Translations under genes and position numbers: made by a program
Part shown: positions 7,798 through 38,014 of the stretch, in pieces
Position numbering within the stretch: position 1 is the first letter of the stretch
Layout of the letters: each line of letters opens with the position of its first letter
Source: Sphyrna mokarran
Lineage: Eukaryota
Assembly: GCA_024679065.1 (NCBI GenBank)
Contig: JAGIQG010000009.1
Span: 91,574,001-91,638,000 of the forward strand
Reading direction: 5' to 3'
Length of the DNA: 64,000 bases
Notes under the pieces: model-generated
Told to the model about the DNA's origin: nothing
The model's database searches: none
Seen by the model: the letters and a program-made list of their open reading frames with translations, nothing else

Positions 7798-7846
7798 CAG
7801 TGCAAGGTTGTACATCAACACGCTTATTCTCTCTGTCTGTTCTTAC

Positions 7847-8107
7847 CGGATGTCTGGTTTGTGATCTTCAGCACTGTATTCAGATTCTCCTTTGCCATGT
7901 TTGAGTGTGAGTTCACCAGTGCTGTGATATAATCCCAGAATTCAGAGCTGATATTTTCAGCAATGAACCTCTGCCTGGGAATGCAGCGACCGATATTACT
8001 GTCATAATATCCTATTTGGACACCATTGACTATTGCAGTGCTTGTGACCTCAGGAAAATCTTCTATCCCAGAGACAACATTACGCATCACCATGAGTGTG
8101 TTAATGT
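7847..8107 (-). CDS. Gene A MHC class I alpha1 exon
   Basis: 261 nt, TTCTTTTACAG acceptor, G|GTAAGA donor; DINTLMVMRNVVSGIEDFPEV...YYDSN...FWD...TNQTSG with the conserved N86 sequon. Confidence 0.93.
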
Positions 8108-8179
8108 CTGTAAAAGAAACAGTTAAAGGGACGGGTCAATAAACATCTCTGATCATCAGAACAATCTCACAGGACTTCA

Positions 8180-8582
8180 CCATCCCCTCTCCTCCCGTCC
8201 CCACTATCCCTACAGAGCCCCTAAACACAATCCCCTACTCCCGATCACCATCCTCTCCCCGATCACCATCCTCTCCCCGAGCACCACCCCCTCTCACGAT
8301 TATCACCCCTTACCCCAATCACTACCCCCTCCCACAATCACCAACTCCTACATCCGATCACCATCCTCTCTCTTAATTACCACCGACTCCCCAATCAGCA
8401 TCCCCCTCCGACCACTACCCCTACCTCCCAATAACCATCCTCTCCTCCTCCTCCTCCTCCTGATCACCACACCCTCTCTTCCTGATCATCCACCCCTCCC
8501 CTTATCACCACCCCCTCCTCCCAATCACCATCAGAGCCACCCCCCCCCCCCCCCCCCCCACCCCTGCCACCGAACACCACCC
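8180..8582. repeat. C-rich degenerate tandem repeat (CCGATCACCATCCTCTC-like) with a poly-C run
   Basis: Repeated ATCACCA/CCCCT motifs and a C20 run at 8540-8559. Confidence 0.8.
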
Positions 8583-9035
8583 CGAATGGGCCAGTAATAC
8601 AGTCTGGGAGGCTGTGTAATCGGCCATCAGCGTCCTGCTACAGAGGACTGGGGACCAGTGTCAGAAAAGGATGAACAACCTTCTTTGGGCAGGAAGGGTC
8701 AGTGTCCATCCCATCCTGATATCGTTCCCGTCTGTTGCCTTTGCAATGTTGAGCCACCCGCCTGACACTCTGCAGCCTCCCAGCACCCGGTCTCAAGGAC
8801 ATTCCTCCAACCCCTCAGTCACCCCCACTGACAACCACAGACTGTCGAGGCACAGCCCCGATAAACCCACCCTCTACACCCTGTGTCCTTCCAGCCACCA
8901 GGTTTTCAATCCCTTCTTTATCTCCATGGGATGAAGTTGACCATAAGCACCAGGATCATGCAAAACTGGAGATGGGGTCTCGGAGCTGCATCTCCTCACT
9001 ACCTTTGAGGATGGCTATGGAGTCAACAGGGAAAG

Positions 9036-9345
9036 ATGAGGAGAATGGAATATAAAAGTAGGGAAAGCTTGCTAAAATTATACAAGACACCAGTTAGACC
9101 ACATCTGGAAAACTGTGATCAGTTTTATTCTCCTTATCTCAGGGAAAATATACTGGCATTGGAAGCAGTCCGGAGAAGGTTCACCAGGTTGATACTGAGT
9201 ATGGAGGGATTTTCTTATGAGGAGAGGTTGAGTAGATTGGGCCTGTACTCATTGGAGCTGAACAGAATGAGAGGTGACTTTATTGAGACATATCGGATTC
9301 TCAGGGGTTTGACAGGGTAGATGCTGAGAGGTTATTTCTCCCTTG
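9036..9345 (+). mobile_element. CR1 RT C-terminal fragment
   Basis: YKTPVRPHLENC...LEAVRRRFTRLI...YEERLSRLGLYSLE; paralogs at 21746-22083 and 47670-47980. Confidence 0.85.
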
Positions 9346-9569
9346 GAAGAATGCCAAGACTGGGGATGGGGTCCCCGAGCTGCATCTCCTCAATGCCTCT
9401 GAGGAGCGCTATGGGGCTAGCAGGAAAGGGTGAGGAGGGAATGGTCACTGATGGTCAGGTCGGGGTTCACCATGGTAGTGAGCATTTCCAAAACCCGAGT
9501 TCAAATGGCTCAATCCAGGTAATGGCATACTGCCCAGACACTTGTCCCTTTCTACTTTCCTTGTAATCT

Positions 9570-11470
9570 TCTGGAATACGAGGAAAGTGGAAAGAAAGTT
9601 AAGCAAGGATTAAGGAGGGATAAAAAGCATCATACAAAAACACTGGCCAGCAGGATTAAGGAAAATCCCAAGGCTTTTTATACATAAGTAAAGAGCAAGA
9701 GGGTAGCCATGGAAAGGATTGGCCCACTCAAAGACAAGGGAGGGAATGTATGTGTGGAGTCAGAGGTAATGGGCAAAATATTAAATAAATAGTTTGCATC
9801 AGTATTCACCAAAGAGAATGACTTGGTGGATGATGAGTCTAGGAAAAGATGGGTAGATAGTTTGAATGATGTTGAGATCAAAAAGGAGAGGTATTGGGGT
9901 TCTTGAGAGACATTAAAGTAGAAATGTCCCCAGGGGCTAATGGGATATACCCCAGAATACTGAGAGAGACAAGGGAGGAAATTGCTGAGGCCTTGAGAGA
10001 AATCTTTGTATCTTCACTGGCTCCAGGGGAGGTCCCAAAGGATTGGAGAATTGCCAATGTTGTTCCTTTGTTTAAGAAGGGTAGCAAGAATAATCCAGGT
10101 AATTACAGGCTGGATCATCAGTGGTAGGGAAATTATTGGAGAGGATTCTTCGAGACAGGATTTATTCCCACTTGGAAATAAGTAGACATATTAGTGAGAG
10201 ACAACATGGTTTTGTGAAGGGGAGATCATGTCTCACAAACTTCATCGAGTTTTTCAAGAAAGTGATGAAGATGATTGATGAGGGTAGGGCAGTGGATGTT
10301 GTCTACATGGACTTCAGTAAGGCCCTTGACAGGATCCCTCATGACAGACTGATGTAAAAGGTAAAGTCACATGGGATCAGAGATGAGCTGACAAAGTGGA
10401 TATAAAACTAGCTCGGTCAAAGAAGACAGAGGGTAGCAGTGGAAGGATGCATTTCTGAATAGAAGGCTGTGACTAGTGCTGTTCCTCAGGGATCAGTGCT
10501 GAGATCGTCGCTGTTTGTAACATATATAAATGATTTGCAGGAAAATGTAACTGATTCGATTAGAAAGTTTGCAGACGACACAAATGTTGGCGGTTTTGAT
10601 GATAGCAATGATGAACATCAAAGGATACAGCAGGACATAGATCAGTTGGAGAATTGCAGATGGGGTTTAATCCAGACAAATGTGAGGTAATACATTTTGG
10701 AAGGTCTAATACGGATAGAAAATGTACAGTAAATGGTAGAATCCTTAAGAGTATTGATAGGCAAAGGGATCTGAATGTACAGGTACACAGGTCACTCACT
10801 GAAAGTGACAATAGAGGTAGAGAAGGTGGTCAGGAAAGCAAATGATATGCTTGCCTTCATTGGACGGGCGATTGAGTTTAAAAATTTGCAAGTCATGTTG
10901 ACGCTTTATAGAATCTTAGTTAGGCCGCACTTGGAATATAGTGTTCAATTCTGGTCACCACATTACCAGCAGGATGTGGAAGCTTTGGAGAGAGTATAGA
11001 AAAAATGTACCAGGATGTTGCCAGATATGGAGGGCATTAGCTATGAGGAGAGATCGAGAAACTTGGTTTGTTCTCACTGGAACGACAGAGATTGAGGGGT
11101 GACTTGATAGAAGTCTACAAGATAATGAGAGGCATGGACTGAGTGGATAGTCAGAAGCTTTTTCCCAGGGTGGAAGAGTCATTTACTAGAGGGCACAGGT
11201 TTAAGATGCAAGAGTTTAAAGGAAACGTATGAGGCAGATTTTTTTACACAGAGAGCAGTGGGTGCCTGGAACGTGTTGCTGGGGGAGGTAGTGGAAGCAG
11301 AGACTGTACTGACTTTTAAGGGGCGTCTTGACAAGTATACGAATAGGATGGGAATAGAGGGATATGGTGTCGGAAAGATAGGAGGTTTTAGACCAGTGAG
11401 GCAGCATGGTCAGTGCAGGCTTGGAGGGTCAAAGGGCCTGTTCCTGTGCTCTAATTTTCTTTGTTCTCTT
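9570..11470 (+). mobile_element. CR1 LINE ORF2 (RT) remnant with 3' end
   Basis: PGANGIYPRIL, QHGFVKGRSCLTN, YMDFSKA, VPQGSVL, KFADDT; many stops and frameshifts. Confidence 0.92.
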
Positions 11471-14212
11471 GCACTGAACCTTGTGTTATCTGTTACAGGA
11501 AATGATCCAGATGCATTAAACCCTCCCACTCCGCTCCTCCTAAGATGCACAATGGCAGCTGGAAGAAAACCTCGGAGGAAGGCCCCAAGGAAATTGTCAA
11601 GCTCAGCATTTGTCAATTGACACCAGCTTCCACCACACAATCCACCAGCGCAGATACGATCAGCTCAGTGGGACAAGTTAGTGCTGAGGCTTCTGGGTCA
11701 ATTACTGGTGGGCACCACACAGCCTTTAATCTACATCGGGTGAAGGTGGGAATGTCGACGGTTCGGGCACACGGAGTTCTTCCAGAGCTAAGGATGCATC
11801 TGGCCCCAAGCCAAGTGCTAGGCCTCTGGGATCGGTCATCCCGAAATTGCTGGAGCTCCATCAGCAGCAGTGGTGGAGGGACTGTCAGCAACACTGCATC
11901 AACTGTGAGGCTTTTGGAGGAATCTAACAGATTTCTGTCACAGGAGGTGGTACCGGTACAGTGTGGTACTCAGACTAACACTGCAAGGGTCGCATCCACA
12001 GTGGAAAGCCTGGGGTAAGGATTGGTCACCATGGTTGACAGGATGCAGACCATCCTGGAGACACAGCCATGGCTGCGAGCCTCAAACTTGATCCAGTCTC
12101 AGGGGGCATCGCTGAGGGCTTGTACACCATGGGGCAGATGTAGTTGGGGATTCCAGGACTGACAGAGCCAGGTGATGCTGAGGCTTTTGGAGATGACTCC
12201 AGCTGGCCACCATCCAATGGAGTATCCCAGGTACATGTGGGCACTCTGAGTGGGAAGATTTGGAGCCCATGCTGGGGCCTTCCCTTCCTCACACTGGAGC
12301 ATCTCACGGGCAGCAGGATGAACAGGGTGGCATGGCTACACCAGTGTCATCCACAAGACAGCCAAAGACCTCCAGGTATCAGCGCCCCCCAGGGGTCTCC
12401 CATCAATGGGATCACAGACCATGGGGTGAGGAATGCAGTAGGATGTCTCCCCATCAATGTGCATCCTGACGGGTCACTCTGGTGCAGTAAAAGGCCTTGT
12501 AAAATTCAGAAGTTCTAATGTCATCAGGATGGCAGAAGTTAACGTTTGCACTAGTCAGAAAAAGGACATTACATACTGTTTAGAATGACATACCCCTGTT
12601 ATATTGTACAATTAAATATCATCCCTTCATGTTATTTGTACTGTTAGTTGCACCAAGAAATATTATTGCACCCCCAGCTGTGACTAATCTTTCTGTGATT
12701 CCTACCCTACAGGGATGACCGTATCCTGACCGCACACAAAGAGGCGCAGAACGTCATGCTGTGTGACAGAGGCCCTTCGGCCAGTAGGCACAGACAGCCT
12801 GCCCTGGTATCTCCAGCACCCACTACACTCTGTGGCAAACTGCCCCCCTCTGCACCCACAGGGTTTTGTTCCCCCCTTAAACCCACACAGCCCACTGACT
12901 GCACGTTTATATCCGAGGCCCACATTCATACGTGTGCCCAGGTGCCAGTGTAAATAGAGAGGGCAGGTAGGATTCAGATCTGTGTGGCACCAGAGCAGCA
13001 TCACAGTGTGTCGCAAATTGAGTCATCATCACCCTCCTGCCTGGACCAAGGACTCACTAGCGTGCCCAGCCCACTCCCATCACCCTGGTGTGATGCCATT
13101 TGGATCCTTGTCCCCCACCAGCCATCCCGGCAGCCTGAGCTGGTCCTCAAAGAGCCCCGGGAACTCCGGAGGATGTCGCTGTTGTACACACACTCCCTGG
13201 GTGTTGTACACACACGTACATGATATTCAGCCTGTGGTCATGGACAGTCTGCACATTCAGGAAGTGGAACCCCTTCCTATTGATGAAGTGCAGTCCCTGA
13301 TCATGTGGGATCCACTGAATAATGTGAATGCCATCTCCAGCCCTCTGCACATGGGGCAGTGCAGTGATGGTGGTGAAATCTGCAGCCTGGGCTTCCTGTT
13401 GGGCCTGATCCATGTTGAAGTGGATGTAATTGGCTGGATTCCTGGAAGAATCTGGTGGTGTAGATATTGAGGGCACCATGACCTTCACTGCCACAGGGAG
13501 TGGGTGTCCTCCTGTGCCTCGAGTTCCCAGGTCTGAGGAGCTGAAACAGGTGCCACACTGTCTCCTTACTGAGACGGAGCCTGCAGCATCATGTGGCCTC
13601 CATCATCCCTGCAAAGCATCTACAAGTCCTGTACGCCCTGAGCCTCCACATCCTCCTTCCCCTGCCCCCCTCCCCTGTGGCAGGATGTACTGCCATGTCC
13701 TGGCCCTGACCGGCAGCCCCCTGCCCTCCTGCTGTGGCTTCTGCCTTCTGGCCACACAGGGAGGAAAGAGGAGTGGGTTTCCCAGGCTACCCATTGCGGA
13801 CCCTTGAAGCTTGGGTATGGGTGCTATCACCGCAGTACCTTCCAGGGACATGTTGCATTTCAGACAGTCGGGACAGGGACAGCCTCGTGACTATCACAGG
13901 ATGGGTTCCCATCGCAGGCAGCAGTGCAGAGTCCAGGCAGTGTGAAGAACCATGTTAACAACTGCACAGCTCCTGTGCTTGGAGCAGCAGCTGACAGAGC
14001 TGCTGTCTGTTACTGTTATTGGGCCTGGGATACAAAGTCTGGAGTCAGCTGCAGTGCCTGTCCAGCAGACAGACAGCAAAACAAACAGGTCAGTATTTGT
14101 GGGTTGGTGATGAACATTATGTGGCACCTTTCGGGGGTCTCTGTGTAGCCAGGGGAAATGTGTGCACCATGAACCTGCTGCAAATGGTGACTCCCAGCAC
14201 TGGTCCCCCCAG

Positions 14213-14553
14213 GGGAGGAGGTGGTGTTGTGGCCCTGTCGCTGGACTAATCCAGAGACCCAGGGGAATACTCTGGGTACCTGGATTCGAATCCCACCATG
14301 GCAGTGGTGAAATTTGAATTCAATAGAAGTCTGGAATTAAAAATCTAATGGTGACCAGAAACTGTTATCGATTGTCACAAATACCCATCTGGCTCACTAA
14401 TGTCCTTTAGGGAAGAAAATCTGCCATCCTTACCTGGTCTGGTCTACATGTGACTCCAGACCCACAGCAATATGGTTGAGTCTTAAATGCTCTCAGGAAT
14501 GGGTAATAAATGCTGGCCCAGCCAGTGACACCCACATCCCAGGAACAAATAAA
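14213..14553 (+). mobile_element. tRNA-derived SINE (second family) nested in the Harbinger element
   Basis: B-box GGATTCGAATCCC; tail AATAAATGCTGGCCCAGCCAGTGACACCCACATCCC-A-rich; paralogs at about 53575-53905 and 43463-43548. Confidence 0.65.
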
Positions 14554-15664
14554 AAATCCCCCACCCCACCCCAGTAACATTGCAGCTCCTGAGTATCCGG
14601 TGCCCCCTTTCCCCCTGAACTCCGGGGGGCTGCCCCTCAATGGGACTTTCCTCCTCACTCTCCTTCGCTATTGCTGCCCCAGGCCCAGACTTTTATAAAC
14701 TATCTGTGATTCATGCTGGAGTGATGTCACGCTGGAGAGGAGGGTAAGGTATGGGAGGGGGAAAAGGGCTGTGCCAAACTCTAATGATATGTACACCTAT
14801 AAAAATCCATGGAAATTGACGTCCCGCCGGAAAAAAATGGCCTGGGAGAATCCCAAACCACCTGACACCGAGCGCAAATTTGATTGTTCGGCCCACGGTC
14901 CATTTCCTTCCCCACTACACCAGTGAACCAGTGCAGCAGGGTGGAAAGATCACAGCATCAAGGACCCAGGTTCAATTCCAGGATAAATGCATGGAGTTGT
15001 GGGGATAGGTCTGGGTGGGACTGTGATCAGTGCAGACTTGATGGGCCGAAAGGCCTCCTTCCGCGCTGTAAGGATTCTATGAGGGAGATGGACAATCCAG
15101 AGCAGGATCTTCACTGACCTTCACAGAGCTTTTTAATTCCCCTTTATACATGCTCATGAGTACATCCTCAGTTTGGAAAAGTCTAGGAATCACCAAGCAG
15201 GAATATTCCGATTTAAATTTCACTCCCAGCTGTGGCTGCCTGGAAACACTCTCACCTCTGACTCAGTATGTTCTGGATTGAAGCTCCCGTTCCAGAGACT
15301 GGGCTGCACACACAGTGTATTACTGACAGAATGCTGCACTGTCAGAGGATCAGTCCTGAGGGAGAACTTTCCTCACAGATTAATGGAATAGATCCCGGGA
15401 CAGAGCAGGATGATCAGAAACTGGATCAATACTGATCCCTGAGACAACATCATCCATGTAGATTGTCTAATCAGAGTTTCCTGCACCATAACAGTGAGGA
15501 CACTAGAAAAGGTATTTCATTGGCTGGAAAGAGCTTTGATGCATCCTGGTGTTGTGAAGTCTTTCTGTATCTGCTTTCTCTCTCACACCTTTTGTCAAAA
15601 CACAATGGTAACTTTGGAATCTAACGTCACTGCTCCCAAATCAAAGTACGGATTTTAATTTGTT

Positions 15665-18600
15665 AAGAACATAAGAACCAGGAGCAGGAATCGGCCATCT
15701 GGACCCTCAAACCTGCTCCGCCATTCAATAAGATCATGGCTGATCTTCTTATGGACTCAGCTCCACTTACCTGCCCGCTCACCGTAACCCTTAATTCCTT
15801 TACTGTTCAAAAATGTATCTATCCTTGCCTTGAAAACATTCAATGGGATAGCCTCAACGACTTCACTGGGCAGGGAATTCCACAGATTCACAAGCCTTTG
15901 TGAAGAAGTTCCTCCTCAACTCAGTCCTAAATCTGCTTCCCCTTATTTTGAGGCCATGCTGCCAAGTTCTAGTTTCACCCGCCAGTGGAAACAACTTTCC
16001 TGCTTCTATCTTATTTATTCCTTTCATAATCTTAGATGTTTCTCTCAGATTCCCCTCATTCTTCTGAATTCCAATGAGTATAACCCCATCCGTCTCTTCT
16101 CATAAGCCAACCCTCTCAACTCCGCAATCTACCTAGTGAATCTCCTCTGCACCTCCTTCATTGCTAGTATATCCTTTCTCAAGTAAGGAATCCAAAACAC
16201 GTGAGGTATGGCCTCAGCAGCACCTTATACAGTTGCAACATAATCTCACTGTTTTTAAACTCTATCCCTCTGGCAATGAAGAACAAAATCCCATTTGCCT
16301 TTTTAATTACCTGCTGCACCTGCAAACCAAATCCTTGAGATTCCTGCACAAGGAGACCCAGGTCCCTCTGCAGAGCAGCATGCTTCAACCTTTTACCATT
16401 CAAATAATCGTACATTTTGTTGTTATTCCTACCAAAATGGCTGACCTCACATTTAGCAACATTGTACTCCATCTGCCGGACTCTTGCCTACTCACTTAGA
16501 TTATCTATATACTTTTGCAGACTTTTGGCATCCTCTGCACACTTTGCTCTTTATCCATCTTAGTGTTATCTGTGAATTTTAATATACTACACTTGGTTCC
16601 CAACTTCAAATCATCTATGTAAATCATAAATTACTGTGGTCACAAAACTGATCCCTGAGGCACACCACAGGTCACTGATCACTACAAAAACACCCACTTA
16701 CTCCTACTCTTTGCTTTCTGTCAGTTAACCAATCCTCTATCCATGCTAATACATTACCCTGTAACATTGGGCACCTTTATGTAGCAATCTTTGGTGCCGC
16801 ACCTTGTCAAATGCCTTCTGGAAATCCGGATATATCACATCCACAGGTTCCCCATTGTCCACTGCACATGTAATGTTCTCAAAGAATTCCACCAAGTCCA
16901 TCAAACATGACCTGTCCTTCATGAATCCATGCTGTGTCTTACCAATGAGACTACTTATATCCAGATATCTCACTATTTCTTCTTTGATGGTAGATTCAAG
17001 CATTTTCCTTACTTCAGGAGTTAAGCTTATCGGCCTGGAGTTAACTACCTTTTATCTATCTCCTTTTTTAAACAGTGGCATTGTTTTCCAATCTGTGGGA
17101 AAATTCAGTGAATTTTGGTAAATTACCACTAGTGCATTTGTTATTTCCCCCTGACATCTCTTTTAGTATCCTGGGATACATTCCATCAGGACTACAAGAC
17201 TTGTCTATCTTCAGCCCCATTAACTTGCCCAACACTCCCTCTTTTGTGATAATGGTAGTTTCTCATTTCTCACCTGCCATAGCCTTCCTGTCATCAATGT
17301 TTGACATGTTATTTGTGTCTTCCACTGTGAAGATTGAACAGATATTTTGTGTCAATGCCTCAGCCATTTTCTCATTCCAGTTATTACACCCCGTTTTTCA
17401 TTCTCTATGGAACCAATCTTTATTTTCACCACTCTTTTTCGTTTTATATATTTGTAGAAACTTTCACTATCTGTTTTCATATCCTGAGCTAGTTTACTCT
17501 CATAATCCATCTAACCTTTCTTTATAGCTCTCTTTGTGATTTTCTGCTGACCTTTAAAGATTTCTCAATCCTCCAGGTTCCCACCAATCTTTGCCATTTT
17601 CTATGCATTTTCTTTCAATCTGATTGGTTGATTGAAATTCAATTTCAAGGGGTGTAGAGTACAAGAGCTGGCCTTTAATGTTGCCGTTGTATAAAACGTT
17701 GGTTAGACCTCATTTGGAATATTGCGTCCAGTTCTGGTCGCCTTACTACTGTAAGGACGTGGAGACTCTGGAGAGAGTGCAGAGGAGGTTTACCAGGATG
17801 CTGCCTGGTATGGAAGGTCTGAGTTACGAGGAGAGGTTAGGCAAATTGGGACTGTTTTCCTTAGAAAGACATAGACTTAGAGGCGATCTAATAGAGGTGT
17901 ACAAGATTACAAAGGGGATAGATAGAGTAAACAGGCTTAAGCTTTTTCCTAGGATGGACTCAAATAGCAAGAGGGGTCACGGGCTTAGGGTGAGAGGGAT
18001 AAGGTATAATTTAGATGCTAAAGGGAGTTTTGTCACACAGAGGGTGGTGGGGGTATGGAATGCGCTGCCAAGTAATGAAGGCAGGTACTCTGGAGTTATT
18101 TAAGAAATACTGAGATGGGCACATGAACAGAATGGGAATGGAGGGGTATAGAAAACTGATTTAAAATAGGGATCATGAGCCTTGGGAGTCCCTGGGAAGT
18201 GAGTAAATAGATGATGATATTGATGTCCTTGTTTTTATCCTACAGGTGCTTTGGTCCACCTTGTTGTCTAACAAGGGGCATACACGCGATGGGTCATGAG
18301 AGGGCTGCTCTTGGATCTTTTTCGAGAGTATCCTAGTGCTTCACGTCATTAATGTCCGCTTGACCTGGACCATTTGATGGGCAACACGACAGCTCAGTGA
18401 CTATCGCTGTGCTGTGAAGCTACATGGATTTGGGCCTGTGTCTGTGGGAGTTTGCGCATTCTCCCCGTGCTTACGTGGGTTTTCTTCAGGAGCTCCGGTT
18501 TCCTCCCACATCCCAAAGATGTGCTCTTAGGCTAATTGGCAAAACAAATTCTCTCCAAATTGTCTCAAATTTGGTTTTTAATCCATAGATCTATAAATAT

Positions 18601-20530
18601 GGACAGGGATCGTGAGTAGAGGTGGGAACAGCGGCGTGGGCTTGTGGGGCTGAATGGCCTGTTTCCTGTGCTGTTTTGTTCTTTGTTATTTGATTCTCTC
18701 TTTTATTTCCTCAGATATCCATGGCTGATTATCTCTTTTTCTACAGTCCTTCCTTATCACTGATGTATACCTTTGATCAGCACTGGGAAAGGTCGTTTTG
18801 AAAGTCTTTCACTGTTCCTCAATTGTCCCAGTATAAAGTTTTTGCTCCCAGTTTACCTTAACCATTCCTGACTCATCCCTTTATAGTTCCCTTTGTTTAA
18901 ACATAAGCCAATAGTATTTGATTTTACGTTCTCATGCTCCATCTGTGTTTTAAATTCAACCACAGTGTGATCTCTTCTTCCAAGGGAATCCCTAACTGCA
19001 AAATCATTCATTATTCCCGACTCATTCCCCAGGATAACTTGCTCCCTCATCGGTTCCATTCCATACTGTTCAAGGAAGCTATCGTGGATTCATTCTATGA
19101 ACTCCTCCTCAAGGCTGCCTTGACCGACCTGGTTTGACCAATTGATATTTAGATTAAAATCCCCCATGATAATTGCTGTACCATTTTTACATCCATCAGT
19201 TATTTCTTTGTTTATTTCTCACCCCATCATGATGTTATTATTTGTTGGTTTATAGACTAAGCCAATCAGTGACTTTTTCTCCTTACTATTTCTAATTTCC
19301 ACTCAAATGGATTCAACCGTTTTTCCATAGAACCTATATCATTTTTCATTATCGCTCTGATATCATCCTTAAATATCACAGTTACACCATTTCCATTATC
19401 TTCCTGTCGATCCCTCCAAACAGTTTGATACCCCTCAATATTCAACTCCCAGTCGTGACCATCCTGGAACTCTCTCTGTAATGGCCACCAAATCATACTC
19501 GTTCACAATGATCTGTACTGTCAACTCATTTACCTTGTTTTGAATACCACAAGCATTCCGATGAAGTGCCCTTATGGTAGTTGTTTACTTTCTTTTTGAA
19601 TTCTAACATTTCCATTAATAACATCTCCTCAGTTCTCCTTCCATTTAATTTTTTTTCTGATTTTTGATGGAGTTGGAACTTTCTCCCCACATTTTGTCCT
19701 TGCTCTCTCCTTATCGGACTCCTTACATTGGTTCCCATCCCCCTGGCATTATTAGTTGAAACTCTCCCCAAATGCTTCAGCAAACACACCCCCACGGTCA
19801 ACAGTCCCAGTCCTGTCCAGGTGTAACCTGTCCAATTTGTACAGGTCCCGCCTCCCCTAGAACCAGTGCTAATGCCCCAGAAATCTGAAACCTTCCTCCT
19901 GACACCATCTCTTCACTCTCCCCCTTCACAAAGCCTTGCTCCGAGACATCCTTGACCCTAGCACCAGGGAGGCAACATACTATCTCTTACAGCTACAGAA
20001 ATGCCTGTCTATTGCCCTTACAATTGAATCCCCTATAACTATTAGACTATAACTAATCTACACAGTAAAACTGGCACACTTTTTACCCCTCATGTCTGCA
20101 ACAGAACCAACCTTGGTGCAATGAGTTTAGCTGCTGTTGCTTTCCCTAGAGAGGTCATTCCCTCAACAGGATCCAAAGCAGTATATCTGTTTTGCAGGGG
20201 AATGGTCACTGGAGATTCCTGCACTAACTACCTATCTCTCTTGCTCTGAAGGAGGTCACCCATTCTTTTCCTGCCTGTGGAGTTTGAGCCTGCAGTGTGA
20301 CCAACTCTCTATACCTGCTATCCACAATACTCTCTGACTCGTGGTTGCTCCACAGTGTCTTCATCCGCCGCTCCAGTTCTGAAACTCAAGCTTCCAGGAG
20401 CTGTCGCTGGAGACACTTCCCCTACACATACTGACCCAGGAGACTGGAACTGTCCCCAACCTGCCGCATGGAGCAAGAGGAACAAACCACTGCTTGGAGC
20501 TCTCCTGTCATGTCTTACCCCTTTCAATTA
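15665..20530 (-). mobile_element. Near full-length decayed CR1 LINE (ORF1 remnant, endonuclease, RT), split by a younger CR1
   Basis: QHGFMKDRSCL, DFQKAFDKV, DWELNIEGY; ORF1-like segment at about 19900-20520. Uninterrupted paralog at 55168-58440. Confidence 0.85.
17645..18690 (+). mobile_element. CR1 3' fragment with composite 3' UTR (hairpin module plus V-SINE domain)
   Basis: [18 protein letters not shown] 17678-18103; absent from the paralogous site near 57135; same family at 30945-32805 and 40118-43450. Confidence 0.88.
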
Positions 20531-21435
20531 AACTTTTGAATGATCTTATGTTTCAGATATATACAATTTTCTTTCTTTTCTGTTCCTCGTTACAACCGAG
20601 CATGACCTTTTCAAACTATAAACCACAGAAATTATACAGAAACACTATAATAGTGTACACCAACTACAATGCCAAGAGCAAAAAGAAACAATATTCCCAA
20701 TCAGCACTCTCGCTTGTAGCCTCTGCTGCCTATTTCACCTAACTCCCTGTGTCCATCCAACTCCCAAAGCACTCCTCCTTAACGTTTCTCCTTACTCCAG
20801 CACTCTGTGCAGGAAAATTATAACAGTAAACCAGCCAGGAGGTGAACCTGGAATGTTCTGATCTTGTTTTCTGCTGCTAATATTTTATCTTTTCCTCTTT
20901 GGTACTACAAGGTACTTGGTTACTAAATCTCCTGTGTTATCTACAGCTCTGCCTGTCAATCTTTAATGGTTCCATATCTCACAGAGTCACTCATTTACTG
21001 TTAATATATTTCAGTAAACTTTTACCATTAGTCTTTATATTACCTACACATTTTCACAATGGCCTTTATCTCAATTTAATCTTTCTGTTCCTCCATTTTT
21101 CCCTCTGTTTCTGGATATTTCCACTTTAATTGCTCCAAGCTTCTCAGATCAGGTGTTTTGAACATACAAACATGGATCAGGAGTAGGCAATTCGGCCCCT
21201 CGAGTCTGCTCTGTTATTCTGTGGCTGATGTGATTGTGATCTGAACTCTACTTTCCTCTCAATCTCTCTGTACACTTTCACTCCCGTGTCAGTCATGATG
21301 TTATCTAACATTTATATCTGACAGATACACAATAATGTCTGAGTGAACATCACCCATTTCAAACTCTCACCAAAAGATTCAAATTCACCCCAGAGAGAGA
21401 GAGAGTGAGAATGGGAGAGTGAATTCTGTACTTAC

Positions 21436-21487
21436 CGGGAGAGACCCAGGAAAAACACAGGGAGATGGAGAAAAGGATCAGCAACAT
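21436..21487 (-). CDS. Gene A leader (signal peptide) exon MLLILFSISLCFSWVSP(D)
   Basis: ATG plus 52 nt, hydrophobic, G|GTAAGT phase-1 donor matching the alpha1 acceptor; nearest intact leader upstream of alpha1-A. Confidence 0.82.
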
Positions 21488-21544
21488 TCTGGGAATCCAC
21501 TGTCCCAATTCCAATCAGTGATTGGGAATTAAACATTCTGAGGG

Positions 21545-21730
21545 TGAAACAGCTTGATAAACTGGGGGAAAAACACGAAAAAACAAAAACTTTCTCCAGA
21601 CTTCATTTTCCTGTCTAAATCGAGCATTTCCTTCTTGTAGAACCAGAGGGTGACTGATTGGTTAGTCTCAGAAAATTAACCAATGAAAGAGATAAACAGC
21701 CAGCCTGTCACTAGTTACCCGGAAGATCAA
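21545..21730 (-). promoter_or_regulatory. Class I-like proximal promoter: X-like, Y (ATTGG), CCAAT; TATA mutated; ISRE absent
   Basis: Minus strand CCGGGTAACTAGTGACAGG (21704-21722), ATTGG 21680-21684, CCAATCA 21655-21661; TATCAA at the TATA position. Confidence 0.6.
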
Positions 21731-21745
21731 ACTCACTCAGGTTCA

Positions 21746-22083: not shown

Positions 22084-22159
22084 CAAACTCTCACCAAAAG
22101 ATTCAAATTCACCCCAGAGAGAGAGAGAGTGAGAATAGGAGAGTGAATTCTGTACTTAG

Positions 22160-22211
22160 CGGGAGACACCCAGGAAAAACACAGGGAGATGGAGAAAAGG
22201 ATCAGCAACAT
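22160..22211 (-). pseudogene. Orphan leader exon copy with dead donor (CTAAGT) and no promoter
   Basis: 52-nt copy of the leader; GT changed to CT; homology to the promoter ends about 50 nt upstream of the ATG. Confidence 0.8.
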
Positions 22212-24221: not shown

Positions 24222-24258
24222 TTGCCTGAGGAAGACACAGAGTGTTGAAAGCTCGCAA
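24222..24258 (+). ncRNA. Minimal type I hammerhead ribozyme motif (right Penelope arm)
   Basis: TTGC-CTGAGGA-A-GACAC(AGA)GTGTT-GAAA-GC-TC-GCAA: stem I TTGC/GCAA, core CUGANGA...GAAA, palindromic AGCU in place of stem III. Confidence 0.7.
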
Positions 24259-27200
24259 TTTTACTATCAAATAAATCGGTTCGATTAAAAATTGGTGTTG
24301 CTAAATTCTTACTGAGTTCTTACCACCCCAATCCAACGCCGGCATCTTTACGTTAAGCCACACAGCCACAGGGAGAATAATTCATTGCTGTCAGAAAAAG
24401 AGCCAATGAAAGGAAAGAATTTCAAATGTCTATTTTTCACAACTAGGCTTACATTCATAGTGTAATGAAGTTACTGTGAAAATCCTCGAGTTGCGACACT
24501 CCAGCACCCGTTCAGGTACACTGAGGGAGAATTTAACATGGGTGATTCACCTATCCTGTCTCCAGTTATCAGGAAATTGTCCATTTCCAGTTCCGACACT
24601 TCCATGTTAAGTTTCCTCCTCCATCAGGAATGGACACAAAAATAGGGCTTGAAAATGATAAAGAAGCCACACTACAAACAACCATCATTTTAGCTGCTGC
24701 AGGCTTTGGGCCCAGTCAGGCCACCTGCCCCCACAAGGGTACAGATTGTTAGACTAATTAAAAATCTTGTTACACTGCAATTCTTCCAGTCCGCTTTAGG
24801 TTTTCCAATTTGAAATTCAGCAGACGAATGGTCTGGTCTGAGCACACACAGTTGGCCAGGGAGGACAGTCCTCCCACAATCCCTTTCAGCTTGCCTGGCT
24901 GGAGGAGCAGACACAGTTTGTCCTGTAGATGGACATTCCCCTTCCCTCACCACACTCCCCCTCACCCCCATAATGGTGGCCTGGCTTCTTTCTTGGTTTA
25001 TTTTGATGGTTTTCTGAAGTGACTAACAAGGACTTTCCTGTTGAAGCAGTTTCTCAGTTACACACCCTGTACTGTAGCTGGGTGCTTGTCGAAAGCTGGA
25101 GGAATCTGGATTGGTTATTGGGGAGCCTGCCCACTGTTCTTAATTGTGAGGGAAATGGTTTCCATGCCAATTATAAATGTTCCCCCACAGAAAATCCTTA
25201 ACTGTGACCTGTATCTTTGTGTTTATACCTCTCTTTATTTCTGTGAGTGTGTGTGTACATGAGCATGTGTGTATACTTATGTGGGTATGTGAGCATGTGT
25301 ATGTGTATTTGCACGCCAGTGTGTGCTCGTAGCTGTGTGTGTGTATGGATCTTTGTGTCTGTGTGTTTGCATGTGTGTTCACTTATCTCAGTTTGTATCT
25401 GTATGTGTGTGTGCGCACGCTGGTATATATGTGCGTGCTTATGTGAGGCTGTATGTGCATCTTCACTCCATAACCCATTCAATTATCAATTACAATTTAA
25501 AATGAAAAACTTCCAACAATTCTACAAAGTAAGACTGTAAGACTGTTAAATTATTCAATTTATTTCCAGTTGCCTCTTTTTTAATCTCAACAGGATGTGA
25601 AAATTCCTGGCTAGGCCAGCATTTATTGCCCATCCCTAGTTGCCCTTCACAATGCTGTTAGAGTGGGAGTTCTAGGGTTTTGACCCAGTGATAGTGAAGG
25701 AACAACAGATATATTTCCAAGTTAGAGTGATGTGTGGCTTGGAGTGGAACCTCCAGGTAGTGTGTGTTCCCAAGTATCTGCTGTCCTTATCCTTCAAGGT
25801 GCTTGTGGGTTTTGAAGATGCTGCCCAAGGAGCCTTGGTGAGTTCCTGCAGTGAATCTTGTAGATGGTTCACACAGCTGCCACTGACCATCAGTGGTGGA
25901 GGGCTTGAATCATAGAATCCTCCAGTGCAGGAGAAGGCCACTCAGCCCATCAAGTCTGCACCAACCGTAATCCTACACCATCCCCATTAACTCATGCATT
26001 TAGCTGTGCTAATCCCAAGACACAAATGGGTTATTTAGCCTGACCAGTTCAGCTCACCCGCACATCTTTAGACCATGGGAGGAAACCAGAACACTCTGAG
26101 GAAACACACACAGGCACGTGGAGAATGTGCAAACTTCACATAGACCGTGACCCAAGAAGGGAATCATACCCGGGTCCCTGGTGTTGTGAGGCAGCAGTGC
26201 TAACCACTATTCCACCAGGCTGTCCCTTGTGGAATGGGTAGCAATGAAATGAGCTGCTTTATCCTGAATAGAGTCTGTTGAGTTTCTTGAGTGTTTTTAG
26301 AGCTGTCCTTACCTCGGCAAGTGGAGAGAATTCCATTACATAGAAACATAGAAAACAGAAGCAGGAGTAGGTTATTCAACTCTTTGAGAGTTTTCACCAT
26401 TCATTATGATCATGGTTGATCATCAAATTCAATATCATAATCCTCTTCCCCCATAACCCTTGATCCCAAAAGGCCCAAAAACTCCATCTAATTTATTCTC
26501 GAAGTCAGACCATGTTTTGGCCTCACCGACTTTCTGTGGTACTGAATTCCTCACACTCACCACTCACTGGATGAAGAAACTTCTCCTCACCTCAGTTCTT
26601 ATCCTCAAACTATGACTCCTAGTTCTGGACTCCCTCATTGTTTGGAACATTCTTTCTGAATTACCCTGTCTAATCCTATTAGATTTCTTAAGTCTCAATG
26701 AGATCCCCTCTCACTCTTCTAAACTCCAATGAATACAATCCTCACACTCCTGACTTGTGCCATGTAGATGGTGGACAGGTTCTGGGGAGTCAGGAAGTGG
26801 TTACCCACTGCAGGATTCCTAACCTCTGACCTGCTCTTGTAACTACAGTATATGGCTAATGGCGAATCCAGTTTTGTTTCTGGTCAATGAAAGGCCCCAG
26901 GATGTTGCTAATGGAGGATTCAGACATGATAATACCATTGAGTTCAAGGGATGGTGGTTAGATTCTCTCTTGTTGGGGATGATTGTTGCCTTGCACTTGT
27001 GTGGCCCAAATATTACTTGGCACTTGTTAGTCCAAGCCTGGATATTGTTCAGGTCTTGCTGCATTTTGGACACAGACTGCTTCGACATCTGAGGAGATAT
27101 AATGTAGCTGAACATCAGTGAACATCCCCACTTCTGACTTATCATAGAAGGCAGGTCATTGATGAAGCAGCTGAAGATGGTTGGGATTGGGACACAAATT

Positions 27201-28860
27201 CCCTGAGGAATTCACTGATGCCCAGAGACTGAGATAATTGACTTCCAACCAAACAACCACCATTTTTTGTGTTAGTTATGATTCCAACCAGTGGAAAATT
27301 TTCCCCTGATACCCATTACACTGGTTTTACTAGGGCTCCTTGATGTCAAGAGCTCTCACTCTCATCTTACCTCTGGAACTCAGCTCTTTTGTTCATGATT
27401 AAATCAAACCTGTAATGAGATCAGGGGCTGAGTGGCCCCAGAGGAACCCAAACTGGGTGTCACTGAGCAGGTTATTGCTGAGTAAATGCCACTTGATGGC
27501 ACTGTTGATGAACTTTCATCACTTTACTGATGATTGACAGTAGACTGACTGGGCTGTAATTGCCTGGGTTAAATTTGTCCTGATCCTAGTGTACAGCACA
27601 TACCTGGGCAATTTTATTCATTCCCATTCTTCTCACTGTACTGGAATAGCTTGGTGAGGGAAGCAGCAAGTTCTGGAGCACAAGTCTTCAACATTTTTGC
27701 CAGGATGTTGTCCTTCCACACCAACACACTCACTTTGAGGTTCCCTACATTTCTCATTACTGAGAAGCTGGTGAGCCTTCACCTCCAGCTCACTGGGAAA
27801 TGTGCTGAAGCTTAATTCTCTAAAGTTAGGACACGGCTTCCTCTCCTCTCTCTCTCACACTGACATCTTCAGTTAAGAAGTCAATCAATGCTAATGGAAA
27901 ACAGTGAATGATGCTGACATTTAGTCTGAACTCAGCCAGTTCACATTGGATTGAACATCAACAACTGCCCATTCCAATCGTCACAAGCTGCTGAGTGAAT
28001 GAATTAAACCTTTCCTGTGAAATCAGTGAAGAAGAATTCAGACAAATCAAACACAAAGAGTTATTTATTGATTACAATCTACAGTTATGATGTTTCATTA
28101 TGATCCTGATTATAGATTTTACTCCATGAATGTGTTATAATATTAAAATAAACAACCATAGAACACATCAGATATAATATTATATAAAGAACAAAATGGG
28201 CCAGTGTGTAATAATTTAAATTCTGACATTCCGTCGTGTCTCAGAGTTACAATTTAGATTGGCAATATTAATATCTCAGCAATATTCACACTGAGAGGTT
28301 TGACATGTTTTTCAGCCACTCCCTGTAACGATGATGGGAGGTCTTCCCCCATTGAGTGTCTCCAGTAACTGTCCAAGCTGTGTCGTGTCCCTCACCAGTA
28401 TTCCTGGACCTTGCATTGTGACAATCTGAAACCCTCAGTCATGGAGAACCCTTTGCCCTGGAAGAGCTGTTAGTTTCAGGCTGATTTTCACTGAGTTGAT
28501 GGTCCTCATGGTGTTTATCTCAGTGTGTGTTTCTGGGAACAGCCTGTACAGCGTACAGTCCTGTATAAAGGAGCTGCTGGGATGAACATTGTGTGACTGT
28601 GTGGGAATTCATCAGATCAAATTTAATTTTACTTCATTTCATATAACTTAGGAAGTGAAGTGGGAAAACTGCCAGAAAAATGTTTCCAACATCCCAATTG
28701 TCATTTGCATTATCAGATACATCACATAATCTTTCATATGGATTCCAAAAAGTCTTCATCAAAATCCGCAAACATTTAAAGACATTTAAAAATTTAAGCA
28801 ATCAGAAAGTGAGAAAAGTGTACAAACTGTGAGTGTATTTCATTCCCAACAATCTGTCCC

Positions 28861-28904
28861 TCAGTCACTCAGTGGAGCTGTTGTGTACGTCCCACTTGGT
28901 GAAT
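28861..28904 (-). CDS. Gene B putative cytoplasmic exon (DSPSGTYTTAPLSD*)
   Basis: Same acceptor, frame and stop as in gene A. Confidence 0.5.
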
Positions 28905-29310
28905 CTGCAGAAGTGAAATAAATGTCAGTTAGAATGGGGAATAATCCATTCTCAGAGAGTGAGAACACAACAAGTGTGAGGGAATGGAGATTGTGTGAGA
29001 AATACTCATTCTCACACTCCCCTCCATCCTTACACTTTATGGAGATCCTGTAGATCTCTTCCATTCCATCCATATTCAGTAGGTGAGGATGTGAGTGTGC
29101 ACGGTGGCTTTAATGATCAATATTATACCTGGACTGGGCTGATCACACAAAGGAAAATCAGACAGGGAACAAGATGTGTTTATACGTGTGTATCTGTGGA
29201 TGGGAATTAAATCAGTTCATTCAACACAGTGTCCTGTATTCCCAGTACTGGAGATTCCCCACACTCACTCTGTCCCCTCAGTTCTACATTCCCCTCTCTC
29301 TGATTCTTAC

Positions 29311-29430
29311 CTCTCCGCTGTCTTTTCCAGATGATTATTCCGATTATTCCAAATATAACAGCCAGTGCAGGGATCACTGTTCCGATTATAATTCCTAAAT
29401 TGAAATTTCCTCCACAGTTTTCTGGTATTT
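29311..29430 (-). CDS. Gene B connecting peptide/TM exon
   Basis: 120 nt, TTTTTCAG acceptor, G|GTAAGA donor; EIPENCGGNFNLGIIIGTVIPALAVIFGIIGIIIWKRQRR. Confidence 0.88.
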
Positions 29431-29809
29431 CTGAAAAACATTTGAATAATATGAGGATTGTTTCTCTGTTCCCAGGTCCATTCGCAGTTTTCTGTTCACT
29501 GGGGACAATTGGAACTGAATCTGCCCATTGAGAATTGATGGGATTTTCTGAAACACTGGTTTTACACTCGCCCCATTTCACCCTCCAGTGAAGTGATGAA
29601 AGATTCCCATTGATGGTGATGTCAAAGCCGTGTTATTCCCAAACCCATGGGATATCATCCCAGCCAGTTCAGTTCTAATTCTCCCCAATGTCTGTGTGTC
29701 CTGTCTTTGTTCAATCCCAGGGTTAAATTGTATGTCCCAGGAGGCAGCATCACTGATGTTTTCACATCAAACACACACATACACACAGAACAGTTTGACA
29801 GTTCCTTAC

Positions 29810-30088
29810 CCCACTGATAGAGCTTGGGCTCTGCCAGGCTGCTGTGTTCAATTTGACAGGAGTATTGATTCTCATCCCCAGCATTTATTTCAATCTCTTT
29901 CTGAATCTGATGGCTCCCATCATGGTTTGGTCGAATTCCCGAGGATAGTGTTTCAGACATTACCTCTCCATTCCTTAACCAGTTCACCTCGATGTCTGCA
30001 GGATAAAAGCCAGTAACCAGGCAGGAGAGAGTGAGGGGCTTGTCCTGACTATTGGGCTCACTTCTGGAGATGAAGACTTCAGGCTGAA
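29810..30088 (-). CDS. Gene B MHC class I alpha3 exon
   Basis: 279 nt, canonical splice sites, both Ig Cys present, 5 aa differences from gene A. Confidence 0.93.
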
Positions 30089-30205: not shown

Positions 30206-30480
30206 CTTTCCGTCCAAAATATACTTTTCCAGCTTGTAAATATAACAACAAATATTTCACCAAGACTTTTTCAAGACTTGTTTTCCAATAGTTGTTCCAG
30301 GATTGATCCGAATCCCATTTCTCTTTGTCTTCACTGCCATGTGATTGGATGCGACCCATCTCATTCTGTTGGGCTCTAAACTGATATGGTCTTTTCCATC
30401 AAATCCAACTCTCATCGATCTCTTTATGGAGCCGTCTTCAGCAATCTCAACAATTAGGATCCATTGAAAAACGTGAATTC
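30206..30480 (-). pseudogene. Gene B alpha2 exon with a 1-nt deletion (frameshift) at about 30326
   Basis: 275 nt versus 276 in gene A; the homologous peptide is split between ORFs 30257-30508 and 29655-30359. Confidence 0.85.
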
Positions 30481-34310: not shown

Positions 34311-36904
34311 GACATGGCGCAACTCTATGAGAGTTATTACTGAACAATGTCAACCTCAGCAAATTGGTTTAAAACATTTCATAACATTTGTGTTCATGAA
34401 CTACTTTTCTATTTTGTAATCTGTCATCATTTTAAAACGGTTCATATGAATAAAATGGTTTGATTTATTTACAATGACTCTGAGCTAAAACTTATCATCT
34501 AGCATGGGCATGAAGCAGAGACTGGTTGTTGAAGGTTGGGAATAAAGGATGGGATTTTCCGCAACCTTCTCTTCTCCAAGGATGTTTCATGGTGGCAGAG
34601 GAGGCCCACCATTGGCTGGCTGTAGGAGCTTCGTTATCAGTGGGTTTCCCATTGAATGGACCCCTGTTGCCGGGAAAACTGTGCCGGGCATTCGCTGTCG
34701 GCAGGACCAGAAGATCCTGGTGGTGAAAATGGCCAGAAAATACCAGCCTAAGGAGTTGTTTCAGTCAGAAGATTGTAAGCTGAGGTATCTCTGTTGAAAA
34801 ATAGTAGAGATCAAAGGGGTGATGTTCAGCCACGTTTGTCTTCAAAGAGAATGGACACGGGGGTGGGGAGTGCGGGGGGAGAGTAAAATACGGTGAGATT
34901 CTCACTGGCAAGATCATGTTTCCCATGTTTTTCATGTGAAAGAACAGTGATATATTTTTGAATCAGGATGGTGAGTGATTTGGAGAGGGACTTGTGGTGA
35001 TGGCGTTTCTATGTATTTACTGTCCTTGTCCTTGATGGTGACCGAGGCATTTTAATTTTTAAATAGAGTAGAAAGGTGTAATACAGCTCATATATTTTAA
35101 TTAATCAATTGTGGAATAATATTAACTTGAGCTTACATTGCACATTTAATGTGGAATGTCCCAATGCATCTTATCTGATAAAACTGTTAAATGACCAAAA
35201 GCTTGGTCAAACAGATAGATCTTAAGGAATATCTTAAGTAGGGGAGGAATACGAGGGGGTTTAAGATTGAACTTCTCAACCTTAGGTCGAGCTAAGTAAA
35301 AACATAGAACGTAGAACATTACAGCGCAGAACAGGCCCTTCAGCCCTCGATGTTGTGCCGACCAACATGGCACCAATGAATGAGGATTGGAAGTTAAGGG
35401 TGTACAAGAAACTAAAAGTAAATGAATGCAGGTCACTCAGAGGATTGTAGGGCTGCAGAAGGTTACACATTGGGGTAGCATGGTGCCATAGGAGGATCTG
35501 AAAATGAAATTGTGAATTCTAATTTCAAGCCTGAAATCAATGCAGGTCGTCAGTAAGCACAGGCACAAGAGTAGAATTTATAGTAAATCATACTGTCAGA
35601 AACCTCCCAAATCTCTTCATGTACAATCAAGCCATCCAAAACGCTGCTAGCCATATCTTATGTCACATCGTGTCCCACTCTTCCTGGCATACACTGTCAC
35701 GCAATATCCTGAATTTAAATCATCATTCTTGTTTTCAAATCCATTCCTGGCTTCATCTCTCCCTGCCTGTAATCATCTCCAATCCCACAACATCCCAAGA
35801 CATCTGCACTCCTTCAGTACTGGCTTCTTGAGCATGTGTATAATTGCTGCACCATTGATAGCGATGCCTTCAGTTAACCAGGTAATGAGCTCTGGAATTT
35901 CTGCACTGTACCTGTTCACTTCTCTTGCTTTCTTCCTTTCAGATACTTCTAGAAATACCTTTCAGACCAAGCTTTTGATCATTACAGTTAATATCTCTTT
36001 CTGTGGTTTAGTGTCTTTTTTCCACAGTGTTCCTGTGAAGCACTATGATGACTTCAGCCATTCTAATGAAGTTGGCTTCTAGAGTATGAAGCCCTAAGTT
36101 AATTTGAGTTTATTTATTTATTGGTCTGCAAAAGAGCTACCTAATGTGTTCTCACAATTGATGCTTTCCACATCTATTGGGCACTGCAGGGGCCAGCGTA
36201 TATTACTGACCCTGAAAATCACATGATGATTTGGTGTTTTAAATTTCTTTTTTACTTTGTTTTTTGTTCAGGCTGTTCCCTCTCCTTTAGGAGGTCTGCT
36301 CCTTTTAATTTGAGTTAGTTTATTACGTTGGCATATATTAAGTTCTAATTGATGGTTAAATCAGGGAGCCTCGTGCTCCCTATTTAAATCAGGCATGTCA
36401 GTCTCTCAGCCTGCATTCATCAGGGAGCAATTGGAGAGCTGGCTGTGTGCAGATCTATGTTGTAAATAAAGTAATTTGTGATGGGACTTTCACTTCTGTG
36501 GAGTTATACAAACAGTTTGGAAAATTTTGTTACAATCAAGGCCTTCTACAAGTTGACAGTGTTACTGTTGAATTGTTTTGAAAAGTGGCTAATGTTGTGA
36601 TGAAAGCAAACAGCTTCATTACAGTATTACTGACAAGAAGCAATTCTTCACCTAAAGAGGGATCAGTGACTGCAGTGGTCTCCGGATAGAAGTATGGGTT
36701 TAGGATACTCACTATCCTTCCTCCACGACACGGGTACAGGGTACATGAGATAGAGGCCTCAGATCATTATACAACTCACTCCATGTACTGCTTGGAAGTC
36801 TTGTGGTTGATTGGGAAGAATTGTGACTCTGAGTCAGAAGCTCTGGCATCTCCAGAACTTGTTCTCTGCTGGAGAATAGTTCATGATGAGAAATAATCTG
36901 TTAA

Positions 36905-37225
36905 TTGTAGAATCCTTACAGTGCAGAAGGAAGCCATTCAGCCCATTGAACCTGCACCAACAAAAATCTCACCCAGGCCCAATCCTCATCATACCATATA
37001 TTTACTTTGCCAGTCCCTCCGACACGAAGGTCAATTTAGCATGGCCAATGAACCTAACCAGAAACCTCTTGGACTGTGGAAGGAAACCAAAGCACCCAGA
37101 AGAAACCCAATGCAGACACAGGGAGAATGCACAGACTCAGTACAGACAGTGACCCGAGGCCGGAAATGAACCCAGGTCCCCGGTGCGGTCAGGCAGCACT
37201 GCTAACCATTGTGCCACTGTGCCAC
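36905..37225 (-). mobile_element. HE1/V-SINE-like SINE
   Basis: Minus strand GTGGCACAATGGTTAGCAGTGCTGCC...CTGGGTTCATTTCC plus V domain. Confidence 0.78.
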
Positions 37226-37753
37226 TCCTAATTTTATATCTAATTTTATATTAATGGAGGTGGAGGCATTATCTTAGGGATTCATCTGGGCAAATTGAAA
37301 AAGATGTGTTTGCATAATGGAAGAAGTTAAATGAAGATTGGTGGAGTGTGTTTGAAAGGATTCAATCTCTAATGAAATGTTGAGCAGAGAAAAGACAGGC
37401 TGCGGTTCCATTTCTCAACAACTGACTTTCTAGATTATAACAGCAGGGATCAATCATTCTCATCACAGAACTTGTGGATTTGTAACTTCTGCCCTGCACA
37501 ATATGCTACTCTGCCATACAAAGTAGAGATTCAAAAGTGTTCCCTTATCCAGTATAAGGTTAATCACAGGAGTGTCAATGTAAAGATCTCAATCAGAACA
37601 GGACGAAGGAACAGAATCACCCTCCATATCTCCCTGATTCATGGACCCACACGCTGTATACCCCAGGGTCACAGTCTGCAGTATAACTGTGGTTAGGTAC
37701 CTGTCTGACACACATTAAATAGTCAGTGGGAAATTGGACATCACTGATCTTAC

Positions 37754-38014
37754 CAGATGTCTGGTTTGTGTTCTTCATTATCGAATTCAGACTCTCCTTT
37801 GCCATGTCTGATCGTTTAATTATGATAGATGTAATGCTTTCCCAATATTCCTCACCAAAAAATTCCACCATGAATTGCTGTCTGGGAATTAATCGAGGAA
37901 TGTGAGTGTCATGATAATTAAGTAGAACTCCCTTCACTATTGCAACATTAGTAACCTCAGGAAGATCACCGATTCCGGAGATTGCCGTGTATATCACAGT
38001 CAGTGAGTCAGTAT
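37754..38014 (-). CDS. Gene B MHC class I alpha1 exon
   Basis: 261 nt, ATTTTACAG acceptor, G|GTAAGA donor; TDSLTVIYTAISGIGDLPEV...EEYWE...TNQTSG. Confidence 0.92.

Follow-up and report, generated by a model that had tools for sequence, protein, structure and literature searches.

The mammalian major histocompatibility complex (MHC) genes HLA-E and H2-Qa1 are homogenised within species in alpha3 and in the alpha1-alpha2 residues outside the groove (Joly and Rouillon 2006, PMC1403747), newt MHC class I genes show more conversion in alpha3 (PMC12863176), and in the classical UBA genes of salmonids and zebrafish alpha1 is shuffled through intron 2, with identical alpha1 domains on very different alpha2 domains among alleles (PMC6523485). 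UEA is an expanded lineage of sharks (review, PMC12562908), and its multicopy class Ib genes are grouped with the single-copy UDA and UFA (Verissimo et al. 2023, PMC10751288). Here we describe an array of 14 tandem MHC class I-like genes (G01 to G14) of Sphyrna mokarran, two of which, gene A (G06, or G06A) and gene B (G05, or G05B), both on the minus strand, are the class I-like genes of the window, the whole stretch of 64,000 nucleotides at C1548:91574001-91638000 (contig JAGIQG010000009.1); 458 kb around the window were analysed for family members and hold the array. The array can be assigned to UEA, the shark nonclassical class I lineage, with high but not full confidence. Its genes have partitioned divergence, with trans-species groove types, species-wise alpha3 domains, two chimeric structures, and a shared leader. 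We consider it probable, at about 80%, that the alpha1 and alpha2-helix types are old and common to shark orders, and that leader, intron 3, and alpha3 are near-identical within each species, likely through recombination between paralogs that overwrites them.

The A clade (7 genes) is present in both the alpha1 and alpha2 trees of the array, with support of 100 and 97, as is the B clade (3 genes), with 99 and 100; the alpha3 tree is short, mixed, and weakly supported. Synonymous divergence (dS) between and within sublineages is 0.94 and 0.12 for alpha1, 0.52 and 0.15 for alpha2, and 0.10 and 0.08 for alpha3 (67 and 24 pairs). The gradient is uneven, with third-position distances between sublineages of 0.46 to 0.56 in alpha1, 0.10 to 0.16 in mid alpha2 (the strands), 0.37 to 0.40 in the alpha2 helix, and 0.02 to 0.16 in alpha3. 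Identity of the alpha1-flanking introns between sublineages is at the level of shuffled sequence, in contrast to intron 3, at 95%.

The same partition extends to other sharks. A search found 136 hits, of which 120 were listed and 95 were labelled as lineage members; 59 have all three domains and, with one truncated model dropped, 58 foreign proteins and 16 own genes make up a comparison set of 74 rows from 14 shark species (13 besides the source). The nearest neighbor is from the same species in 22/71 cases for alpha1, 23/71 for alpha2, and 54/71 for alpha3 (9 ties), and on a quick tree the species label changes 43 times for alpha1 and 20 times for alpha3, where the minimum is 13 and shuffled labels give 52. 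An alpha1 clade like G12 includes Mustelus, Chiloscyllium, Heterodontus, and Pristiophorus (support 100/100). In approximately unbiased (AU) tests with 26 rows, chosen after the trees had been viewed, alpha3 rejects both this G12-like clade and the B-like one (p-AU 1e-4 and 5e-70), but not an own-genome clade (0.26), whereas alpha1 rejects the own-genome clade (3e-36). Between orders, alpha1 distance correlates with alpha2-helix distance (rho 0.35, null 0.00, 0/500 permutations) and has no clear link with that of the alpha2 strands (35/500 permutations). Species-specific alpha3 residues cross sublineages that predate those species, and the identity between the two sawshark proteins is 55% for alpha1 and 99% for alpha3.

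Grouping of alpha3 by species together with orthologous groove parts is what domain-partitioned concerted evolution entails, and in this the array resembles HLA-E/H2-Qa1 and the newt MHC class I genes, in which alpha3 and the non-groove parts of alpha1-alpha2 are likewise homogenised within species while groove parts keep orthology. In contrast to those systems, many paralogous groove sublineages coexist here, some of them common to galeomorph and squalomorph sharks, and the promoter-leader is also shared, reaching the separate lineage UDA.

Genes A and B have the following parts in the window:

21436-21487, minus strand: gene A leader exon, MLLILFSISLCFSWVSP, with a GT donor
7847-8107, minus strand: gene A alpha1 exon, of the A sublineage (7/14 array genes)
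7568-7802, no strand: 35-bp minisatellite in gene A intron 2, a repeat motif
7383-7422, minus strand: alpha2 relic, an older acceptor plus the initial 39 nt of exon sequence, containing an in-frame TGA that recurs in the alpha2 exon of pseudogene G09
6497-7382, minus strand: 3' part of gene A intron 2, common to G14 (99% over the last 150 nt) and with its start within a CR1-like element, of which G14 has a longer copy
6221-6496, minus strand: gene A alpha2 exon, without Cys101 or Cys164, strands homogenised and helix sublineage-specific
6104-6220, minus strand: gene A intron 3, 117 nt in 13/14 genes, with a median between-sublineage identity of 95%
5825-6103, minus strand: gene A alpha3 exon, homogenised
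5351-5461, minus strand: gene A transmembrane (TM) exon
4922-4965, minus strand: gene A cytoplasmic exon with stop
39797-39848, minus strand: gene B proximal leader exon
37754-38014, minus strand: gene B alpha1 exon, of the B sublineage (3/14 genes)
30206-30480, minus strand: gene B alpha2 exon, B type, with a 1-nt deletion at ~30326 in the assembly
29810-30088, minus strand: gene B alpha3 exon, with a switch from B-type to G03-like between ~30237 and 29810
21090-29809, minus strand: gene B intron 4, TM exon (29311-29430), cytoplasmic exon, and 3' flank, in two blocks 97% identical to A-type G03 and traced to 9 kb below alpha3

About 250 nt upstream of the gene A leader is a promoter with what we take to be SXY-like boxes. 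The gene A cytoplasmic exon at 4922-4965 has a possible internal GT donor just before its stop, and the models of other sharks run on into a further exon. Of the 14 array genes, 11 are intact from alpha1 to TM, including splice sites, the exceptions being the broken G09 and G14 and gene B with its alpha2 deletion.

An earlier note on this DNA had drawn attention to a steep identity gradient between genes A and B, with 43/87 identical residues in alpha1, about 70/92 in alpha2, and 88/93 in alpha3. These counts are reproduced when split codons are included (alpha2 69-70/92); with the split first codon left out and the alpha2 frameshift codon masked, they are 42/86, 68/91, and 87/92. The corresponding dS values are 1.00, 0.69, and 0.135, and synonymous divergence differs between alpha1 and alpha3 (Fisher, p=1e-6) and between alpha2 and alpha3 (p=1.6e-4), but not between alpha1 and alpha2 (p=0.35). 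The near-identical leaders, colinear 3' flanks, and unalignable introns beside alpha1 that had been described are likewise borne out: the leaders match at 51/52 nt, the flanks are 88 to 92% identical over ~5 kb, and the 150 nt on each side of alpha1 are 58% and 54% identical, against 53% and 51% for shuffled sequence. Three features had been overlooked, the unalignable 150 nt before alpha2 (59% vs 55% shuffled), a clustering of alpha2 changes in the first strand (16 differences, nt 1-60) as well as in the helix, and the deletion in gene B; intron 3 is 97% identical between the two genes.

The first chimeric structure is in intron 2 of four A-type genes, G03, G04, G06A, and G08, where the alpha2 relic (acceptor and 39 nt) is joined to ~890 nt common to G14, with an overlap of at most 2 nt at the join. 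The CR1-like element is cut at the join and continues upstream in G14, and the G14 lineage is thus the likely donor. These four genes have kept an A-type alpha2 helix, with 11 to 18 differences to other A genes and 36 to 38 to G14. One-ended capture rescuing a null allele fits these facts, which are compatible with either order of stop and capture. All seven A-type genes carry the 35-bp G-rich minisatellite in intron 2, with between 1 and 125 copies of its motif; in G09 it accounts for most of the intron's 11.7 kb. A role of the minisatellite as a recombination trigger is unsupported, with the junction ~185 nt past the minisatellite and beyond the relic exon.

It is conceivable that the array is evolving by salmonid-style shuffling of alpha1 through intron 2, generating combinatorial alpha1 x alpha2 grooves, and the long intron 2 of some genes (>10 kb in 3/14), the fossil junction in intron 2 of the four A-type genes, the pairing of G06A with G03 in the alpha1 tree and with G08 in the alpha2 tree, and the formal incongruence of these trees are all in its favor. 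Nonetheless, the A and B clades are identical in both trees, for each of G01, G12, G14, and the outlier X86 the best foreign match is the same whether alpha1 or alpha2 is compared, the linkage of alpha1 with the alpha2 helix persists between orders, and the junction genes retain A-type helices. Moreover, there is no pair among the 14 genes with near-identical alpha1 on very different alpha2, and for each of the 14 the best alpha1 partner and the best alpha2-helix partner are within the same group. We therefore consider this explanation unlikely, and shuffling between sublineages to be largely refuted. Per-exon trees and dS, which the earlier note had proposed as a check, show trees that are not congruent and dS that is unequal across exons, and its homogenised leader/alpha3 backbone, patchwork conversion, and old diverged alpha1 types stand; its freely shuffled alpha1 cassette does not, and the combinatorial grooves expected from it are contradicted by the common clades and by the tie of the alpha2 helix to the alpha1 sublineage across orders. 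The array is like UBA of salmonids and zebrafish in its old trans-species alpha1 lineages and sometimes long intron 2, but UBA variants are alleles of one classical locus, whereas these are tandem nonclassical paralogs in which alpha1 stays with the alpha2 helix.

The second chimeric structure is gene B itself, which is B-type to ~30237, yet is 97% identical to the A-type G03 from intron 4 on (9 kb below alpha3 traced, two blocks); at the start of intron 4, identity to G03 is 97%, against 63% for the next-best gene. The switch is located in intron 3/alpha3, not intron 2, and either direction of transfer fits. The 3' flanks of genes A and B are colinear because the 3' half of gene B is G03-like, and thus A-type. 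Mosaic paralogs can be mimicked by polishing or misjoins in an assembly, or by faulty gene models, and we note that the site at ~30326 is covered by one contig of X1 and one of X2, both of which lack the gene B deletion, implying that the assembly may contain errors; X23 raw reads have zero depth there. The deletion is an assembly error or else a private allele. The X1 contig has G13-like intron letters and may therefore represent more than one paralog, and no read or contig spans the G05B/G03 switch plus unique sequence on both sides. However, 13 other shark species show the same partition in their proteins, four diverged paralogs carry the intron-2 junction, the G05B/G03 block is 97% identical rather than identical, and the G05B-specific helix is found in X1 (record 6) without differences, such that an artefactual origin is scarcely credible. 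Run X2, which is only guessed to be RNA, contains spliced contigs, which are a sign of presence only; one of them joins a G10-like alpha1 to a B-type alpha2.

The unit that is kept intact is the pair of groove helices. We infer that non-allelic conversion and crossover are restricted to segments that align, and that alpha1 and the alpha2 helix are shielded by heterology and probably also by selection. Conversion tracts and unequal crossovers would start only where paralogs still align, in the promoter-leader, mid alpha2, intron 3-alpha3, and the introns around TM, and the alpha1 exon, with ~35% divergence and flanked by unalignable introns, would escape. The alpha2-helix island is short and lies between two homogenised zones; it is likely kept by selection for its match to alpha1, or heterology may stop the tracts. 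This would yield groove types that are fixed, carried on a backbone that is common to them and tuned to the species, rather than a repertoire of alpha1 x alpha2 combinations.

Several observations weigh against this account of overwriting between intact groove types. Neither the alpha1 nor the alpha2 data are compatible with the full tree of the other domain (p-AU 5e-4 and 7e-6), implying some alpha1/alpha2 reassortment, and the median between-sublineage 3-kb 3' flank does not align (aligned fraction 0.02), implying that long-block exchange is not general. A run test for conversion tracts, which is simple, of low power, and does not model conserved regions, has after correction 2/91 positive pairs for alpha1+alpha2, 3/91 for alpha2, and 0/91 for both alpha1 and alpha3. 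At 38 groove codons, nonsynonymous differences (pN) are not significantly greater than synonymous ones (pS), with 95% confidence intervals for pN-pS of -0.055 to 0.077 (A) and -0.032 to 0.122 (B). The foreign sequences are predicted proteins clustered at 90%. Lastly, alpha3 retains alpha1-linked signal (0/500 permutations with the 74 rows, and 3/500 without 7 outlier-lineage rows), and homogenisation is therefore incomplete. This sublineage signal, the lack of an alpha3 tract in the corrected run test, and an alpha3 dN that is low throughout (0.03) are what might be seen if genes had arisen by birth-and-death duplication without recombination, with alpha3 and leader under strong purifying selection and the groove under diversifying selection. 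We regard such a history as very unlikely, as synonymous sites and the non-coding intron 3 are homogenised too, species-specific alpha3 residues extend across older sublineages (as in the sawshark pair), and alpha3 rejects the orthologous clades.

The shared leader links the array with UDA. In the UDA-like gene, a separate leader lies 1.7 kb upstream of alpha1, in frame and 1 nt off the UEA consensus, and homology of the UDA and UEA leader blocks extends up to ~800 nt at 83 to 89%; over 400 nt, UDA is 72 to 89% identical to 12 UEA genes, where the UEA-UEA median is 88%. Departures of the UEA leader are mirrored by the UDA leader in 4/4 deviating species (Hemiscyllium, Chiloscyllium punctatum, Heptranchias, and Pristiophorus), the Heterodontus UDA leader has one residue different, and there is no exact UDA/UEA leader match in Scyliorhinus canicula. 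The leaders of four ray UDA proteins are related but clearly distinct. A gene model might take its leader from a neighbor, although a separate UDA copy is seen in the source genome and in a fused Carcharodon model. We suggest, quite tentatively, that ongoing conversion between lineages keeps one promoter-leader cassette common to the UEA array and the ancient single-copy UDA, which would co-regulate them, with the near-invariant signal peptide as a possible self-surveillance ligand (compare class I leaders for HLA-E). Just as tentatively, a gene with a stop may have been restored when it captured, in a one-ended event, the intron 2 and alpha2 start of another sublineage, and have multiplied to four genes thereafter.

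Leader copies exceed genes in number, with 29 matches genome-wide, several of which have a broken donor or a lost ATG, and alternative promoter use from the surplus copies is possible. Those in the window are:

22160-22211, minus strand: spare leader upstream of gene A, donor broken
46954-47005, minus strand: spare leader upstream of gene B, intact
59578-59629, minus strand: spare leader, donor broken
62996-63047, minus strand: spare leader, ATG lost

A duplicate of the gene A intron 1 and leader region (window ~43459-60050 vs 9041-21745, 85 to 91%) lies upstream of gene B and is without an alpha1 exon. Around two of the leader copies, at C1548:90.70 Mb and at C1215:79.02 Mb, the flanking stretches examined show no class I exons.

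To our knowledge, UEA is found in sharks and is absent from rays and chimaeras. Among the 120 matches listed, the named hits with at least 51% identity are all from sharks, chimaera hits are at 24 to 32%, and there is no ray, the latter being a weak absence in a word-seeded search; the closest named matches to the array genes among those listed are Mustelus proteins. UEA genes are marked by loss of classical peptide-anchoring residues (HLA-A2 numbering), and in the array Y7, Y84, and W167 are each present in none of the 14 genes and Y59 and Y159 each in three; T143 and W147 are kept in all 14, and K146 and Y171 in 13. The two cysteines of the alpha2 disulfide C101-C164 of classical class I (UAA) are found in 0/74 alpha2 domains. 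UEA has three sublineages and is weakly expressed in tissues; there are more than three alpha1 groups here. The likeness to shark UEA is that of a multicopy class Ib cluster near UDA and UFA with close relatives, among the matches listed, in sharks only. The array is head to head with the UDA-like gene (C1548:91745644, plus strand, locus L055), whose alpha1 is 73% identical to a nurse shark 'nonclassical MHC class I antigen', and adjoins UFA-like exons (91774908+), both recognised by eye against the supplement of PMC10751288; this agrees with the multicopy cluster beside single-copy UDA and UFA in that paper. The best match in that supplement is a nurse shark query labelled 'UCA' (by hand counts, 58/86 in alpha1 with G12 and 81/93 in alpha3 with gene A), and the label 'uea' has no hits there; we infer that the 'UCA' row is the UEA query.

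The neighborhood contains other relatives. Inverted, decayed fragments lie within the array, a leader plus alpha1 at C1548:91718562-91721225 (plus strand) and an alpha3 plus TM at 91378873-91379659 (plus strand), and further class I genes are on the same contig at 85.8, 89.6, 92.1, 93.3, and 95.6-95.8 Mb, which by eye are like the UAA, UAA-2, UGA, and UBA rows of the PMC10751288 supplement. A lone UEA gene at C1548:86.66-86.68 Mb, 4.7 Mb off the array, is less homogenised in alpha3 (dS of 0.30 relative to the array, and 91% to its Mustelus match), as is expected if distance limits conversion. Two overlapping 250-aa open reading frames in opposite orientation with GIY-YIG-like ends (window 22610-24078) may belong to an inverted Penelope-like element.

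The excerpted UEA descriptions in PMC10751288 are silent on per-exon concerted evolution, chimeric junctions, and a UDA-shared leader, all of which are seen here, and neither per-exon UEA evolution nor a UDA-UEA leader was found in the literature searched, mostly by listings and without Almeida 2020/2021, which may cover it. Both the pattern and the family are known, and the intron-2 fossil junction and the UDA-UEA leader may be new. The leader shared with UDA offers a link between the two lineages that can be put to the test, and trees based on alpha3 or on whole proteins would mask UEA orthology. Lasting individual constraint on alpha1 and the alpha2 helix, as opposed to interchangeable parts, names the groove types worth ligand testing.

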